Source: a virus
Taxonomy: Duplodnaviria; Heunggongvirae; Uroviricota; Caudoviricetes
Direction: 5' to 3' (one strand)
Virus record (IMG/VR): IMGVR_UViG_2541047830_000012
Length of the DNA: 51,169 bases
Part shown: one piece after another, positions 1,325 to 13,063 of the stretch
Numbering within the stretch: the stretch's first letter is position 1
Layout: each line of letters begins with the position of its first letter
Position numbers and translations under genes: made by a program
The notes under the pieces: generated by a model
What the model was told of the DNA's origin: nothing
Databases searched by the model: none
Seen by the model: only the letters and a program-made list of their open reading frames with translations

Positions 1325-2143
1325 ATGCGATTAACCAGTCGTTTTGGTTATGTAAACCAGATACGCCGTGACCGTCCGCTGACACACGAAGAACTGATGC
1401 ACCATGTACCGGGTATTTTCGGTGAAGACCGGCATACCTCCTGCAGTGAACGCTATACGTACATCCCCACCATCACCGTACTGGAAAGCCTGCAGCGGGA
1501 AGGCTTTCATCCATTCTTCGCCTGCCAGACCCGCGTACGTGACCCGGACCGCCGGGAATACACCAAACACATGCTGCGTCTGCGCCGTAACGGAGAGATA
1601 AACGGAGAACATGTCCCTGAAATTATTCTGCTCAACTCTCATGACGGTACCTCCAGCTACCAGATGCTGCCGGGTTACTTCAGGTTCGTCTGCCAGAACG
1701 GATGCGTCTGTGGTCAGTCTCTGGGGGAAGTGCGTGTTCCGCACCGGGGAAATGTGGTGGACAGAGTCATTGAAGGGGCTTACGAGGTGGTGGGCGTGTT
1801 TGACCGGATAGAGGAGAAGCGTGATGCCATGCAGTCGCTGATTCTGCCGCCACCGGCACGCCAGGCGCTGGCACAGGCGGCACTGACTTACCGTTATGGT
1901 GACGAACATCGGCCCGTCACCACCGCCGACATTCTGACGCCACGACGCCGGGAGGATTACGGTAAGGACCTGTGGAGTGCTTATCAGACCATCCAGGAGA
2001 ATATGCTGAAAGGCGGGATTTCCGGTCGCAGTGCAAAAGGAAAACGTATCCACACCCGTGCCATTCACAGCATCGACACCGATATTAAGCTCAACCGCGC
2101 ATTGTGGGTAATGGCAGAAACGCTGCTGGAGAGCCTGCGCTGA
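1325..2143 (+). CDS. DUF932 family protein (YfjQ/YafZ-like, CP4-type island)
   Basis: 272-aa ORF with AAGGAG RBS; sequence resembles the YafZ/YfjQ family as recalled; conserved position upstream of the antirestriction gene. Confidence 0.75.
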   Translation: MRLTSRFGYVNQIRRDRPLTHEELMHHVPGIFGEDRHTSCSERYTYIPTITVLESLQREGFHPFFACQTRVRDPDRREYTKHMLRLRRNGEINGEHVPEIILLNSHDGTSSYQMLPGYFRFVCQNGCVCGQSLGEVRVPHRGNVVDRVIEGAYEVVGVFDRIEEKRDAMQSLILPPPARQALAQAALTYRYGDEHRPVTTADILTPRRREDYGKDLWSAYQTIQENMLKGGISGRSAKGKRIHTRAIHSIDTDIKLNRALWVMAETLLESLR

Positions 2144-2388
2144 TGCAGCATGTCCCTGAAGGCGTGATTCAGGCACCAGAATCACCCGACGCCCCGGAGG
2201 CGCTGCCGGGGTGTCGTTCCATTTCTGATGATGACCTGTGCGCCTGGTGTACCCGTCTGCTTTACCGTCCCGGAGAAATCAGTCTGTGCAGACTGAGTAC
2301 AGGCAATGGCATCTGGCCATCCGTCTGTGACCGGAACGGTTACGCGTACGGCTGTCCGGAATTTCAGCCGAATATCATTCATCCCTGA
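2143..2388 (+). CDS. Small island protein (YkfF/DUF905-like by position)
   Basis: ATG overlaps upstream stop (TGATG), suggesting translational coupling; 81 aa; sits before the antirestriction gene as ykfF does in CP4-6. Confidence 0.5.
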   Translation: MQHVPEGVIQAPESPDAPEALPGCRSISDDDLCAWCTRLLYRPGEISLCRLSTGNGIWPSVCDRNGYAYGCPEFQPNIIHP

Positions 2389-2481
2389 TATTACCGGGTC
2401 TCACGGTCAGTGATGAACGTGATGTTGCCAGCTCCCGACCTTTACTCCCTCTCATTTATTCACATTACAAGGATTTCATAC

Positions 2482-2955
2482 ATGAAAACATTGTCTCAGA
2501 ACACCACCTCTTCGGCCTGTGCACCGGAGACTGGCCTGCAACAACTGGTTGCCACCATAGTCCCTGATGAACAGCGCATCAGCTTCTGGCCGCAGCATTT
2601 TGGCCTCATTCCACAGTGGGTGACCCTGGAGCCCCGTGTCTTCGGCTGGATGGACCGTCTGTGCGAAAACTACTGCGGTGGTATCTGGAATCTGTACACC
2701 CTGAACAACGGCGGGGCATTTATGGCCCCTGAACCGGATGACTATGATGACGAAACATGGGTACTGTTCAATGCCATGAACGGTAACCGCGCTGAAATGA
2801 GCCCGGAAGCCGCCGGCATTGCCGCCTGTCTGATGACGTACAGTCATCACGCCTGCCGTACGGAGTGTTATGCCATGACGGTTCATTATTACCGTCTGCG
2901 GGATTACGCCCTGCAGCATCCGGAATGCAGCGCCATTATGCGCATTATTGACTGA
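2482..2955 (+). CDS. Antirestriction protein, KlcA/ArdB family (YfjX/YafX-like)
   Basis: 157-aa ORF; sequence and position typical of CP4-island antirestriction proteins; start chosen at internal ATG 2482. Confidence 0.8.
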   Translation: MKTLSQNTTSSACAPETGLQQLVATIVPDEQRISFWPQHFGLIPQWVTLEPRVFGWMDRLCENYCGGIWNLYTLNNGGAFMAPEPDDYDDETWVLFNAMNGNRAEMSPEAAGIAACLMTYSHHACRTECYAMTVHYYRLRDYALQHPECSAIMRIID

Positions 2956-2970
2956 AAGGGGGCCGGAACA

Positions 2971-3447
2971 ATGCAACAGATTTCCTTTCTGCCCGGAGAA
3001 ATGACAACCAGAGAGCGCAGCCTCATTCAGCGGGCCCTGAAAACCCTGGACCGCCATCTTCATGAACCCGGCGTGGCCTTCACCTCCACCCGTGCGGCAC
3101 GGGAATGGCTGATTCTGAACATGGCGGGACTGGAGCGTGAAGAATTCCGGGTGCTGTATCTGAATAACCAGAATCAGCTGATTGCCGGTGAAACCCTCTT
3201 CACCGGCACCATCAACCGCACGGAAGTCCATCCCCGGGAAGTGATTAAACGCGCCCTGTATCACAATGCCGCAGCCGTGGTGCTGGCGCACAATCACCCG
3301 TCCGGTGAAGTCACACCCAGTAAGGCAGACCGGCTTATCACCGAACGTCTGGTACAGGCACTGGGCCTGGTGGATATCCGGGTGCCGGACCATCTGATAG
3401 TCGGTGGCAGCCAGGTTTTCTCCTTTGCCGAACATGGTCTGCTTTAA
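2971..3447 (+). CDS. RadC-like JAB-domain protein (YeeS/YkfG/YfjY family)
   Basis: HNHPSGxxxPSxxD JAMM-like motif (AHNHPSGEVTPSKAD) visible in translation; GGGG RBS. Confidence 0.85.
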   Translation: MQQISFLPGEMTTRERSLIQRALKTLDRHLHEPGVAFTSTRAAREWLILNMAGLEREEFRVLYLNNQNQLIAGETLFTGTINRTEVHPREVIKRALYHNAAAVVLAHNHPSGEVTPSKADRLITERLVQALGLVDIRVPDHLIVGGSQVFSFAEHGLL

Positions 3448-3509
3448 CCCGTCACAACCACATCACACCTGTTTTCACTTTTATCTTCTGTCTTCAGAGG
3501 TATCCCACT

Positions 3510-3731
3510 ATGAAAATCATCACCCGTGGCGAAGCCATGCGTATTCACCGTCAGCATCCTGCATCCCGTCTTTTTCCGTTCTGTACCGGCAAATACCGCT
3601 GGCACGGCAGTGCTGAAGCGTATACCGGTCGTGAAGTGCAGGATATTCCCGGTGTGCTGGCCGTGTTTGCTGAACGCCGTAAGGACAGTTTTGGCCCGTA
3701 TGTCCGGCTGATGAGCGTCACTCTGAACTGA
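3510..3731 (+). CDS. DUF987 family small protein (YeeT/YkfH-like)
   Basis: 73-aa ORF in the conserved position between the radC-like gene and the toxin-antitoxin module. Confidence 0.7.
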   Translation: MKIITRGEAMRIHRQHPASRLFPFCTGKYRWHGSAEAYTGREVQDIPGVLAVFAERRKDSFGPYVRLMSVTLN

Positions 3732-3749
3732 GTCAGTAAGGGCATTCTG

Positions 3750-4394
3750 ATGAGCAGAATTATCACCACCACCGTGTATACACTGCATGAGCTATCCTCC
3801 ACCGCACAGGAAAAAGCCCGCGACTGGTACCGTCAGCATCATGCTGACAGCAACTGGTATGAAAACGTGTATGAGGACTTCAGGGCGGTCTGTGGCATTT
3901 TCGGAATTGACCTCCGCCAGCGCGTTTTCCGGCTCAGCAACGGCAGGTTTATGGAAGAGGCGTGCATCTGGTTCAGCGGATTCTGCAGCCAGGGGGACGG
4001 AGCCTGTTTTGAAGGACGCTGGCACTGGCAGCCAGCAACAGCCAGAAGGCTCCGGGAGTATGCCACACAGGACCATGAACTCCATCGTATCGCGGATGCC
4101 CTGCAGGCGGTGCAGAAACGTAACTTCTGGCAACTGCAGGCTGAAATCCACCACCGGGGACGTTACTGCCATCCGTACAGCATGGATATCACTGTTACCC
4201 GGAACAGTCCGACTGGTCAGGCTATGACAGCCGATGCGGAAGCCGCTGTCAGCGAAGCCCTGCGCGACCTGGCCTTCTGGTTGTACCGTCAGCTGGAAAA
4301 CGAGTACGACAGGCTGACCTCTGATGCCGCTGTGGATGAGGCCCTTCTCATCAACGAATACACCTTCACCGAAGCCGGTCTGCGCGCCGGCTGA
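3750..4394 (+). CDS. Hypothetical protein (214 aa) between DUF987 gene and antitoxin
   Basis: Tightly packed ORF with no recognisable motif; as far as I recall this position is empty in the K-12 CP4-44 layout. Confidence 0.55.
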   Translation: MSRIITTTVYTLHELSSTAQEKARDWYRQHHADSNWYENVYEDFRAVCGIFGIDLRQRVFRLSNGRFMEEACIWFSGFCSQGDGACFEGRWHWQPATARRLREYATQDHELHRIADALQAVQKRNFWQLQAEIHHRGRYCHPYSMDITVTRNSPTGQAMTADAEAAVSEALRDLAFWLYRQLENEYDRLTSDAAVDEALLINEYTFTEAGLRAG

Positions 4395-4409
4395 CCTGAG
4401 GACTTTATC

Positions 4410-4778
4410 GTGTCAGACAAACTCCATGAGACAAATTATCCCGACGACCATAACGACCGCCTCTGGTGGGGACTGCCCTGCACCGTGACGCCCTGTTTCG
4501 GGGCACGTCTGGTGCAGGAGGGTAACCGGTTGCATTACCTTGCCGACCGCGCCGGTATCAGAGGCCTGTTCAGCGATGCAGATGCGTACCACCTGGACCA
4601 GGCCTTTCCGCTGCTGATGAAACAACTGGAACTCATGCTCACCAGCGGTGAACTGAATCCCCGCCATCAGCATACCGTCACGCTGTATGCAAAAGGGCTG
4701 ACCTGCAAAGCCGATACCCTCAGCAGTTGTGGTTACGTTTATCTGGCTGTTTATCCGACGCCCGAAATGAAAAATTAA
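4410..4778 (+). CDS. cbeA: Type IV antitoxin CbeA (YeeU family)
   Basis: Translation (…DDHNDRLWWGLPCTVTPCFGARLVQEGNRLHYLADRAGIRGLFSDADAYHLDQAFPLLMKQLELMLTSGELNPRHQHTVTLYAKGLTCKADTLSSCGYVYLAVYPTPE) matches YeeU/CbeA as recalled; GTG start. Confidence 0.8.
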   Translation: MSDKLHETNYPDDHNDRLWWGLPCTVTPCFGARLVQEGNRLHYLADRAGIRGLFSDADAYHLDQAFPLLMKQLELMLTSGELNPRHQHTVTLYAKGLTCKADTLSSCGYVYLAVYPTPEMKN

Positions 4779-4866
4779 CTCTCCAGAATAGCCTTCTGCT
4801 ACGGCCTGGTGTTTTCACCACGCCACTTTTCCATTTTTATATCTGCATATCAGGAAAATCTTCAGT

Positions 4867-5241
4867 ATGAAAACATTACCTGTATTACCCGGGCAGGCGG
4901 CCAGTTCTCGCCCGTCTCCTGTTGAAATCTGGCAGATACTGCTGTCCCGACTGCTGGACCAGCACTATGGCCTCACACTGAATGACACACCGTTTGCCGA
5001 TGAACGTGTGATTGAGCAGCATATTGAGGCAGGCATTTCACTGTGTGATGCGGTGAACTTTCTCGTGGAAAAATACGCGCTGGTGCGTACCGACCAGCCG
5101 GGATTCAGCGCCTGTACCCGCTCTCAGTTAATAAACAGCATCGATATCCTCCGGGCTCGCAGGGCGACCGGCCTGATGACCAGCGACAATTACAGAACGG
5201 TAAATAACATTACCCTGGGTAAGTATCCGGAGGCGAAATGA
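4867..5241 (+). CDS. cbtA: Type IV toxin CbtA (YeeV family, cytoskeleton-binding toxin)
   Basis: 124-aa ORF directly downstream of cbeA; sequence typical of YeeV/YkfI/YpjF toxins. Confidence 0.8.
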   Translation: MKTLPVLPGQAASSRPSPVEIWQILLSRLLDQHYGLTLNDTPFADERVIEQHIEAGISLCDAVNFLVEKYALVRTDQPGFSACTRSQLINSIDILRARRATGLMTSDNYRTVNNITLGKYPEAK

Positions 5242-5432
5242 TGACACTGGAAGCCGACAGCGTTAACGTACAGGCGCTGGATATGGGGCACATTGTCGTT
5301 GACATTGATGGTGTTAATATCACTGAACTGATTAATAAGGCCGCTGAAAACGGTTATTCACTCCGCGTGGTGGATGACCGTGACTCTACCGAAACACCGG
5401 CAACTTATGCCAGCCCTCACCAGTTGCTGTAA
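5238..5432 (+). CDS. yeeW: YeeW-like small protein
   Basis: 64-aa ORF overlapping the cbtA stop (ATGA); position as yeeW in CP4-44. Confidence 0.55.
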   Translation: MMTLEADSVNVQALDMGHIVVDIDGVNITELINKAAENGYSLRVVDDRDSTETPATYASPHQLL

Positions 5433-10684: not shown

Positions 10685-13063
10685 TCATATTTTATTTAAG
10701 TTATTCTTTTTTAATGTCATCTCTAGTTCTTCGATACGTCTTTCTATATTATCAATTCTCTCCCAGCATTGCTGAATTGATTTAACAATAGGTGGGATAA
10801 ACTCATCGTAACCGAGTGAGTAAACATCATCCCCACCATTTTTCAAGTGATGCTGTAGCCCACCGAACTCAACACCTAATTTTTCACACAGTTTCAATAC
10901 GTCCTGTGCAATAAACCAGTGATGGTATCGTTGACGTTTTTTACTGCCGTCAGGAGTTTTCTGCACTACTTCAAGATATTTTTCTTCGACATTCTCAATA
11001 GCTGATATAGTAATTCCATCAACATCTCGTTCTACTTTTTTTGGTACAATTCTTGTCTTTTCAATAACATCAATATAATCATCACGCATATCCCAGCGAC
11101 CATCGACAGGACGAAGCCCAAGGATAAATTCAATCCCCAGCAAAGTATCTCGGATATCTGTTTTATCACGCGCATCAGATCTGTTTTGCACAGTTCCATA
11201 TACATACGTCGTTGTGGAAGAATTGCCAAGCTGCACCTGATTACTTCCAGACACTCTTGCATCATTGCCAACAGTTGTTGTGTTGGTAAGTGATGATGTG
11301 CTTTCCCCTGATTGAGTTAATCTACCTGAATTATGTCCAATAGCCGTGTTTAATGCGCCGGTTGTATTTGTGACAAGAGAGCCAGACCCAATTGCAACGT
11401 TACTGCTTCCCGATGTTGTTCCTTTTAATGCCTGCTGTCCAACCGCAACATTATTATCACCCGTTGCTGCTATAAGTGCCATGTGACCAATAGAAACGGT
11501 AAATGAACCTAGCGTTTGAGTTTCACCGCATGCACCATAACCAATTACAACAACATTATCTGTAATTGTTGACTCGGTTGCCGCTCCAGCACCAATAACA
11601 ACGCTTTCATTCCCGGCAAGATTCTTGCGCATTGCGAACATTCCAATGCCAACATTATCATGCCCAGTCCCTGTACCTGCTGCCTCCGCAGCACCAAGAC
11701 AGTTTCCCGCTCTGTAGCCAACCATGGTGTTATTTGAACCAATAGAGAAGTCTCCGGCAAAAGAGCCTACGTATACACTATTAGACTGTGAGTAATCTCC
11801 AGGATTTCCATTCGCCCGATATCCTACTGCAACTGTATAAATAGTATCTGGAGCCTCAGCCATGGCCTCAAAGCCAACTCCAACGTTATATCTACCGCCC
11901 TTAACTTTTTCTCCTGCACCAAGTCCGAAGAATGAGTTATAGCTCCCGGTTGTTAGCCACTCGCCAGCAACAGAACCTACAGCAGTGTTTCCTGTTCCAG
12001 TACATCGATACAAAGTCAGGAAGCCAACTCCGGTATTATTATTTCCTGAAATATTACTCATCAATGATTTTGACCCAATGGCAGTATTGTTAACACCATC
12101 GGTCAGATCCTGTAACGCTCGCGGGCCAAATGCTGTATTATCGTAACCCTTTGGCGCTGTTGTTGGATCTGGTAACTCCGGGGTTAGTTTTTCACCACCG
12201 CCACCATTGGCACAAAGATTGTAAGATCGAATAAATTCAGCCACTGGCCCAAGTTTTAAATAACCATTGGCAATATTAATTCTGACACTTACATTAACTG
12301 AGCTACCAGGAGCTTCTATTGTCCTGTCATCAACCCAGGTAAAACTCTGTGGTATCCCGTCATAAGTTAATGTCACATCTCCTTTATCATTATAATTATA
12401 GAACAATGTATAACGCTCATTTATAGATTCAGAACCTGATGATCCTCCTCTCCTCCACCACTCTGCATTATCAAAAATAAGTAATCCTGGACCATAATAT
12501 TTTCCCTTCTGACCCAAGATCATAGGAGTCGATAATCGCCACCTTCCCTCTGGAACATATACATCGATCCCAGTTCTTTCTGCGTCTTTAAACGATTCAT
12601 CACATAATAAAACACCACCTTCAACAGCACCAAATCCACGAACATCACCATTATCTCTCCATCGAGCCATTTGCAACTCAGGATACTTCTTAGCGCCATC
12701 AATGTCTTCTAATTGGTCCCGCAGCTGATCAGGATCATACTTCAGTACATTAGGAAAATAGAACTGCTGAGCACCGTAAGCATCATATACAGCCATAGAA
12801 TGGCCTTGCACAGTTACGAACTTGGCAATCTGTCCGTTATATACAGGGTAACCAGCAGCGTTAAGGATGATTGGTTGTGAAACAGGAATGTGAGAACCAT
12901 CTTCACTCTCTACATAAACCTGAATCTGGTTTTCAGGATTTACCGGGTCAGTGTCAATTTTACCGATATAAATTTTGCCATTAGCTACGGCTTTAAAAGA
13001 GCGAGCCATAGTGAAGAGTTGCGATGGCATCCCAATTACAACATTTGGGGTTATATTAGGCAT
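10685..13063 (-). CDS. Tailspike / tail fibre: P22 gp9-type head-binding N-terminus, Gly-rich repeat body, C-terminal S74-type chaperone domain
   Basis: N-terminus ([43 protein letters not shown]…) matches the P22 tailspike head-binding domain as recalled; the middle has repeated GxxNTAxGxxA motifs; C-terminal …[23 protein letters not shown]… resembles the self-cleaving chaperone of endosialidase-type fibres; start at ATG 13063 (AGGA 8 nt upstream), alternatives 13072 or 13156. Confidence 0.8.

Follow-up and report, generated by a model that had tools for sequence, protein, structure and literature searches.

The locus studied here raises the question of why a gene for a 214-aa protein lies between the DUF987 (yeeT-type) gene and the antitoxin gene cbeA of an E. 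coli island, at a place where E. coli K-12 has none. The original prediction took it for an extra gene, wedged into a CP4-type toxin–antitoxin module, that could be either a further regulator of the pair or an independent cargo gene. The window, by which we mean the whole stretch of DNA analysed (51,169 nucleotides), corresponds to the CP4-44 site beside tmaR/yeeA/sbmC in ST131-type E. coli, and Pfam confirms the predicted order of antirestriction, radC-like, DUF987, antitoxin and toxin genes (Table 1). The ORF is real and as tightly packed between DUF987 and cbeA as had been described, and a comparison with CP4-44, CP4-57 and CP4-6 of K-12 bears out its absence from all three islands.

The reading frame starts with ATG and runs without interruption to the stop codon at 4392-4394, so that a gene broken by frameshifts, which had been named as a way in which the prediction might fail, was not found. 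Between E. coli alleles the gene is under purifying selection (dN/dS 0.20-0.30), and AlphaFold2 gives a confident α/β model of the protein (pLDDT 90, pTM 0.83). Because it also has thousands of homologs, the ORF is not a product of chance; it is a genuine, selected gene encoding a soluble protein of ~24 kDa, with a pI of 5.7, a net charge of −7 and no transmembrane or hydrophobic segment in its sequence. DUF987 ends with a stop codon at 3729-3731 and cbeA begins with GTG at 4410. Since a site scan detected neither promoter-like nor plus-strand terminator-like sites from 2217 to 4806, the 214-aa gene is probably co-transcribed with the block. An Rfam scan of the whole window gave no match.

Table 1. 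Coordinates of the island genes and spacers in the window, and of related features in other loci
Feature	Position	Strand	Evidence
Co-oriented upstream part of the block: DUF932, 81-aa hypothetical protein, KlcA-type antirestriction, RadC-like	1325..3447	+	Pfam; RefSeq annotation of the identical locus
DUF932	1325-2143	+	Pfam
KlcA-type antirestriction (Antirestrict, PF03230)	2482-2955	+	Pfam
RadC-like JAB protein	2971-3447	+	Pfam
DUF987 (yeeT-type), upstream neighbour of the 214-aa gene in E. coli	3510..3731	+	PF06174, E 1.5e-40
Spacer from DUF987 stop to ATG, 18 nt, with TAAGGG Shine–Dalgarno-like motif upstream of the ATG	3732..3749	+	Sequence
214-aa gene, DUF8835/phrog_5162 family	3750..4394	+	ORF listing; identity to WP_000086752.1; phrog_5162 profile
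Spacer to cbeA, 15 nt; 214-aa gene and cbeA in the same reading frame	4395..4409	+	Sequence
cbeA, type IV antitoxin, downstream neighbour	4410..4778	+	PF06154, E 7e-53
cbtA toxin	4867..5241	+	PF06755, E 8e-58
DUF5983_N (yeeW)	5238-5432	+	Pfam
16-codon stub ORF, K-12 MG1655 yeeT-cbeA spacer	L002:7054-7104; NC_000913.3 about 2077053-2077103
138-aa gene	L009:6589-7008, L010:6592-7008 and 74 further loci among L016-L094

Some features of the surrounding block deserve mention in their own right. The 88-nt spacer between cbeA and cbtA contains a weak terminator-like hairpin (4807-4825) that could tune the ratio of antitoxin to toxin expression. The yeeW gene of the window is a short form of 64 aa with the DUF5983_N domain only; its relatives in related islands (L005, L097, L100) are 159-163 aa long and carry the full DUF5983 domain. 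In RefSeq the annotation beyond it consists of DUF957 and remnants of transposases, so that the right end of the island is decayed. At the other end, the K-12 CP4-57 paralogs of the upstream neighbours (L003:4920-5869) are lfgA, which is antirestriction-like, and lfgB, a RadC-like 'prophage protease'. LfgB is reported to cleave the antitoxin MqsA (PMC10846083, of 2024), and by analogy the RadC-like neighbour in our island may likewise be a protease with antitoxins as substrates.

The original prediction could not place the protein in any family. This holds as far as families of known function are concerned: scans against Pfam (E<=0.01; a 2025 copy without a DUF8835 model), NCBIfam and PADLOC gave no match. 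The protein itself, though, is 100% identical to RefSeq WP_000086752.1, labelled "DUF8835 domain-containing", and matches the PHROGs profile phrog_5162 over almost its entire length (E 5.3e-37, 128 bits, residues 2-210 against profile positions 2-195 of 201). It is thus a member of an already catalogued family, DUF8835 (a Pfam name according to RefSeq) or phrog_5162, to which no function is attached; in several genomes the RefSeq product is misspelt as 'DUF8835 domain-containing pootine' (for example L001:12001-12645). A literature search with DUF8835 and the product name returned no functional study and no mention of DUF8835.

The family is very large: clustering at 90% identity leaves 2,461 homolog clusters and clustering at 50% leaves 6,077 representatives, 1,101 of the latter at E<=1e-30. 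Across 131 diverse members, which are 35-63% identical to the 214-aa protein, the residues E14, L15, G52, G77, Q81-G-D-G-A85, F87, G89, D108 and H141 are nearly invariant, as are W177, Y179, N202, F206 and G210; the invariant polar residues among them are E14, Q81, D83, D108, H141 and N202. The 214-aa protein keeps the corresponding motifs FSGFxSQGDGAxFEG (residues 75-89), RGRYxH (136-141), WLY (177-179) and, close to the C-terminus, NEYTFTExG (202-210). Copies from gamma- and alphaproteobacteria share ~60% identity and many invariant residues. Most members are acidic (median pI 4.75, median net charge −16), the 214-aa protein being milder in this respect, and charge alone is not diagnostic.

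The predicted fold is confident and has no credible relative in the PDB. Neither the protein alone nor a profile of the 131 members retrieved a credible sequence match from that database, and when the pLDDT-90 model was compared with it by Foldseek, no hit was better than E 0.35, TM stayed below 0.3 and no YeeU, YfjZ or YafW structure was among the hits. The corresponding search of BFVD returned uncharacterised phage proteins only (best E 6e-8, TM 0.59). When the family was aligned by hhalign with CbeA, CbtA, DUF987, KlcA, RadC and the 138-aa partner described below, the probability was at most 0.7% in each case (0.1% for CbeA and 0.3% for the set of neighbouring KlcA proteins). Pfam matches among the 131 members were scattered and at chance level, and no extra domain came to light in P0139 and P0247, which are longer than the rest.

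The product name found in the databases is 'antitoxin', in the form of the stock description of RelB, and a proteomics paper on ETEC uses the same antitoxin phrase to name relB itself. A RelB identity can be discarded: neither RelB nor RelB_N is matched in Pfam by the 214-aa protein (E<=0.01), and no such match is listed for the 131 members. Nor does a RelE-type toxin adjoin the gene, whose neighbours are DUF987, CbeA and CbtA in enterobacteria or the 138-aa protein and a methyltransferase-helicase in alphaproteobacteria. Judged from these comparisons, we regard the antitoxin name as a propagated mis-annotation, and a misleading one for anybody who meets the protein in a database.

How common the gene is in E. 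coli, and whether it was gained or lost, can be read from complete genomes. It occurs in 2,101 of 5,426 (39%), at 3,073 places, and 1,943 genomes have at least 80% of the gene in one copy. The yeeT-type DUF987 gene is found at 12,894 places in the complete genomes, so that roughly one yeeT-type module in four contains the 214-aa gene and about three in four do not. The original prediction would have been undone by a known, conserved island member of defined function. The gene does prove to be conserved and catalogued as DUF8835, but no function has been defined for it.

The idea that the gene is an addition to the island has to be given up. In K-12 CP4-44 the yeeT-cbeA spacer is 73 bp long and reads ATGAGCAGAATTATCGCCACTACCG..., which translates as MSRIIATT, the N-terminus of a P0036-type allele, and the rest of the spacer matches the intergenic DNA 3′ of the stop codon of such an allele. 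K-12 MG1655 has therefore kept the ATG, eight codons and the 3′ intergenic DNA, which together form a stub ORF of 16 codons (MSRIIATTGPFLADFL, followed by a stop codon). This points to a deletion from K-12 and not to an insertion here: to judge from the alignment of the spacer, K-12 CP4-44 lost the 214-aa gene by a clean internal deletion and the gene is ancestral to the island lineage. Other partial 3′ remnants in some genomes, together with frameshifted copies (P0045, P0063), indicate that loss has been recurrent. The K-12-centred view of these islands is corrected accordingly, in that the canonical CP4-44 layout is the derived, deleted state.

Within the enterobacteria, every locus examined has the gene somewhere between DUF987 and CbtA with a CbeA gene adjoining it, albeit not always in the same order. 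If X denotes the 214-aa gene, E. coli has DUF987-X-CbeA-CbtA, the full CP4-44-type block being DUF932 - KlcA - RadC - DUF987 - X - CbeA - CbtA - YeeW; Klebsiella has DUF987-CbeA-X-CbtA (L095:5610-6996) and Salmonella has DUF987-CbeA-CbeA-X-CbtA with tandem CbeA paralogs (L097:5293-7081). In the Klebsiella and Salmonella islands X thus splits the antitoxin/toxin 'pair'. A neighbour-joining tree resolves three roughly equidistant clades, one alphaproteobacterial, one comprising the main E. coli group and a second enteric one, and the change of gene order falls within the second enteric clade. Since the order changes inside a single clade, rearrangement appears more likely than independent acquisitions as the origin of the different orders, although the tree is not decisive on this point.

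Outside the enterobacteria the surroundings of the gene are of a different kind. Matches by tblastn come from 69 phage records and 112 plasmid records, the plasmids being mostly alphaproteobacterial. For a comparison of gene order we used 80 loci from one genome per species, found with a 27-member alignment; all but one are non-enterobacterial. CbeA, CbtA and DUF987 are found at only one of these loci, that of E. ruysiae. The other 79 have a conjugative-element block instead. Two genes recur in it: a gene for a 138-aa protein lies immediately upstream in 75-76 of the 80 loci, and in 74 of 75 the two genes share exactly 8 nt (TATGCCTGA) where the family gene starts, and a gene for a methyltransferase/strawberry-notch helicase of 1,440 aa, whose domains were confirmed, follows downstream at a median distance of 163 bp in 78 of 80. 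Toprim (62/80), ParB-N (56/80), DUF2493 (45/80), ArdC-type zincin (42/80) and DUF2958 (31/80) genes are frequent companions. The typical alphaproteobacterial block reads ArdC - DUF2958 - ParB - ... - 138-aa - X - methyltransferase/strawberry-notch helicase - toprim - DUF2493, and its carriers in alphaproteobacteria are Tn4371-type conjugative elements and plasmids. Sphingopyxis pMC4, for instance, has the block at the end of a Tn4371-type element, with RepA/ParA, relaxase, TraG and Trb genes after it. Genes for SSB, DUF932, RadC and antirestriction proteins appear in addition in other plasmid contexts.

In lytic and jumbo phages the family gene is part of arrays of small hypothetical genes of an early type. 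CcrColossus-like Caulobacter phages carry it inside the annotated terminal repeats, in two copies per record (H73, H75, H77-H79). CbeA, CbtA and DUF987 were all absent wherever we examined the surroundings of the gene in phages and on alphaproteobacterial plasmids. A divergent clade (seed P0264) occurs in phage-like metagenomic contigs as well.

The 138-aa protein (MADYFTHFSCLLDVGTPEN...) is itself well conserved, being at least 83% identical over the 120 best-scoring of its 1,664 homolog clusters. We considered it as a hidden CbeA or DUF987, because a 'CbeA-like + X' arrangement would then link the enteric and the alphaproteobacterial layouts. As a distant CbeA it fails, with an hhalign probability of 0.2% and no YeeU structure found for its AlphaFold2 model, and as a distant DUF987 it gave no BLASTP alignment. 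Pfam, NCBIfam and PDB sequence searches returned nothing for it, and with the model (pLDDT 74) Foldseek found weak generic ferredoxin-like/ABM matches only; one source names a 138-aa member 'VOC domain-containing'. We make no claim for a conserved triad 'RadC - small protein - X' either, as the alphaproteobacterial gene a little upstream that NCBI annotates as RadC has no Pfam RadC match.

We consider it close to certain that the 214-aa gene belongs to a real, ancestral family that is borne by mobile elements and is not specific to toxin–antitoxin systems. As to its role, the contexts shared by its carriers, namely KlcA, ArdC, ParB, SSB, the methyltransferase-helicase, toprim, toxin–antitoxin genes and the terminal-repeat or early genes of phages, favour a factor for the entry or establishment of mobile elements, possibly directed against host defence; by analogy with these neighbours, we give this reading a probability of about 0.5. 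The protein would act when the DNA of a mobile element first enters the cell. Most plausibly it would bind and neutralise a host protein, in the service of anti-defence or host takeover, as its neighbours KlcA and ArdC do, and the strong acidity of the family would suit such an entry or binder role. In E. coli we would then see the gene as a further module in an 'anti-defence island' where CbtA/CbeA also reside, the gene itself standing outside that pair. The case is one of guilt by association, an early or entry position being demonstrated only for the terminal repeats of the phages. The 214-aa protein itself is only mildly acidic, which counts against this reading, and its invariant polar residues could mean an enzyme instead. 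No match to an anti-defence protein was obtained in PADLOC or in the PDB and BFVD fold libraries.

Looked at from the enterobacteria only, the gene might pass for an additional, third member of the type IV module CbtA/CbeA, acting as co-antitoxin, chaperone or regulator. At the enterobacterial loci examined it lies within the DUF987...CbtA interval beside CbeA, and some functional link to the pair is possible there. Since it also shares its frame with cbeA, whose start comes 18 nt after the beginning of the stop codon (4392-4412), loss of the TGA yields read-through fusions of 342-343 aa, which databases record for a few genomes; they could be natural fusions that are tolerated, or sequencing errors that occur now and then. 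In the fusion P0002 the TGA has become a Cys codon and in P0008 a Leu codon, on several contigs including a 4.66-Mb chromosome. The antitoxin label of the databases would fit the same role, but it is the generic RelB description, and likeness to CbeA, CbtA or RelB is lacking in sequence, profile and fold alike. The CbeA/CbtA pair of K-12 works as a toxin–antitoxin system without the 214-aa gene. More generally, about three-quarters of the yeeT-type modules of E. coli, including all three of K-12, and nearly all non-enteric relatives separate the gene from the pair, and this family distribution, established by sequence comparison, rules out an obligate role in it. With CbeA and CbtA missing from 79 of the 80 species loci and from all phage matches examined, the further regulator of the original prediction is unlikely, and we think a third component quite improbable. 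The independent cargo gene comes closer to the truth, except that the gene behaves as part of the backbone of a mobile-element entry module.

The alphaproteobacterial loci invite another explanation, that the protein is an enzyme or an accessory subunit working on DNA or nucleotides together with the methyltransferase/strawberry-notch helicase and the 138-aa protein, the E. coli and phage copies being stand-alone versions. The position immediately before the helicase gene in 78 of 80 loci, the 8-nt overlap with the 138-aa gene and the six polar residues that are invariant over the 131 members would all agree with this. Neither the helicase nor the 138-aa partner is adjacent in the E. coli islands and phage loci examined, however, and the protein does not resemble a known enzyme fold or family, which leaves such a function unlikely. 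A decaying or functionless hitch-hiker in a cryptic island, finally, would be compatible with the repeated losses, as seen from the K-12 scar, the partial 3′ remnants and the two frameshifted copies. It is largely refuted by selection and conservation: the low dN/dS, the ~60% identity and many invariant residues kept between gamma- and alphaproteobacteria, the 1,943 E. coli genomes with most of the gene and the confident fold prediction make it barely credible. Our preference therefore stays with a factor for entry or establishment.

Taken one step further, DUF8835 would be a structurally orphan establishment or anti-defence effector, common to conjugative elements, islands and lytic phages, that was recruited beside CbeA/CbtA in enterobacterial islands and went unstudied since K-12 had deleted its only copy; we propose this fuller account as a tentative one, less likely than not. 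The family merits a functional test in any case: its clusters at 50% identity number more than 6,000, its alpha- and gammaproteobacterial copies remain ~60% identical, its confident predicted fold is without a relative in the PDB, and its neighbours are anti-restriction and entry genes, whether in ICEs, islands or phages. Screens for anti-defence and establishment functions could sensibly include it, although as a discovery it is an ordinary one.

Among known systems, RelB shares with DUF8835 the database product name only. CbeA/YeeU (PF06154) adjoins the 214-aa gene in all enterobacterial loci examined, probably within the same operon and with rare fusions between the two, but it is unrelated in sequence and fold, and the family occurs mostly without CbeA or CbtA. 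The resemblance to KlcA/ArdB (PF03230), encoded 800 bp upstream, is one of circumstances, both being small soluble proteins of mobile elements that reside in the same block and in the same kinds of element (ICEs, plasmids, islands); in contrast to these, there is no match in sequence, profile or PDB fold to KlcA/ArdB, nor to ArdA (PF07275). In position the Caulobacter phage copies resemble the pre-early genes located in phage terminal repeats, and the ICE copies lie in the ArdC-ParB-methyltransferase/helicase block at the end of the element. A parallel in gene content is provided by the anti-defence islands that conjugative elements carry in their leading regions. Anti-restriction, methyltransferase, SSB, toxin–antitoxin and many uncharacterised families are enriched there; a third of these families are uncharacterised and ~10% are phage-associated (Samuel et al. 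2024, PMC11541004). Dyads of a methyltransferase with an SNF2/strawberry-notch helicase have been described, along with CbtA domains, as part of the toolkit used in conflicts by conjugative elements and phages (PMC5512222). Like the members of such islands, the DUF8835 gene is found near antirestriction, ArdC, ParB, SSB, orphan methyltransferase and toxin–antitoxin genes, in conjugative elements as well as in phages.
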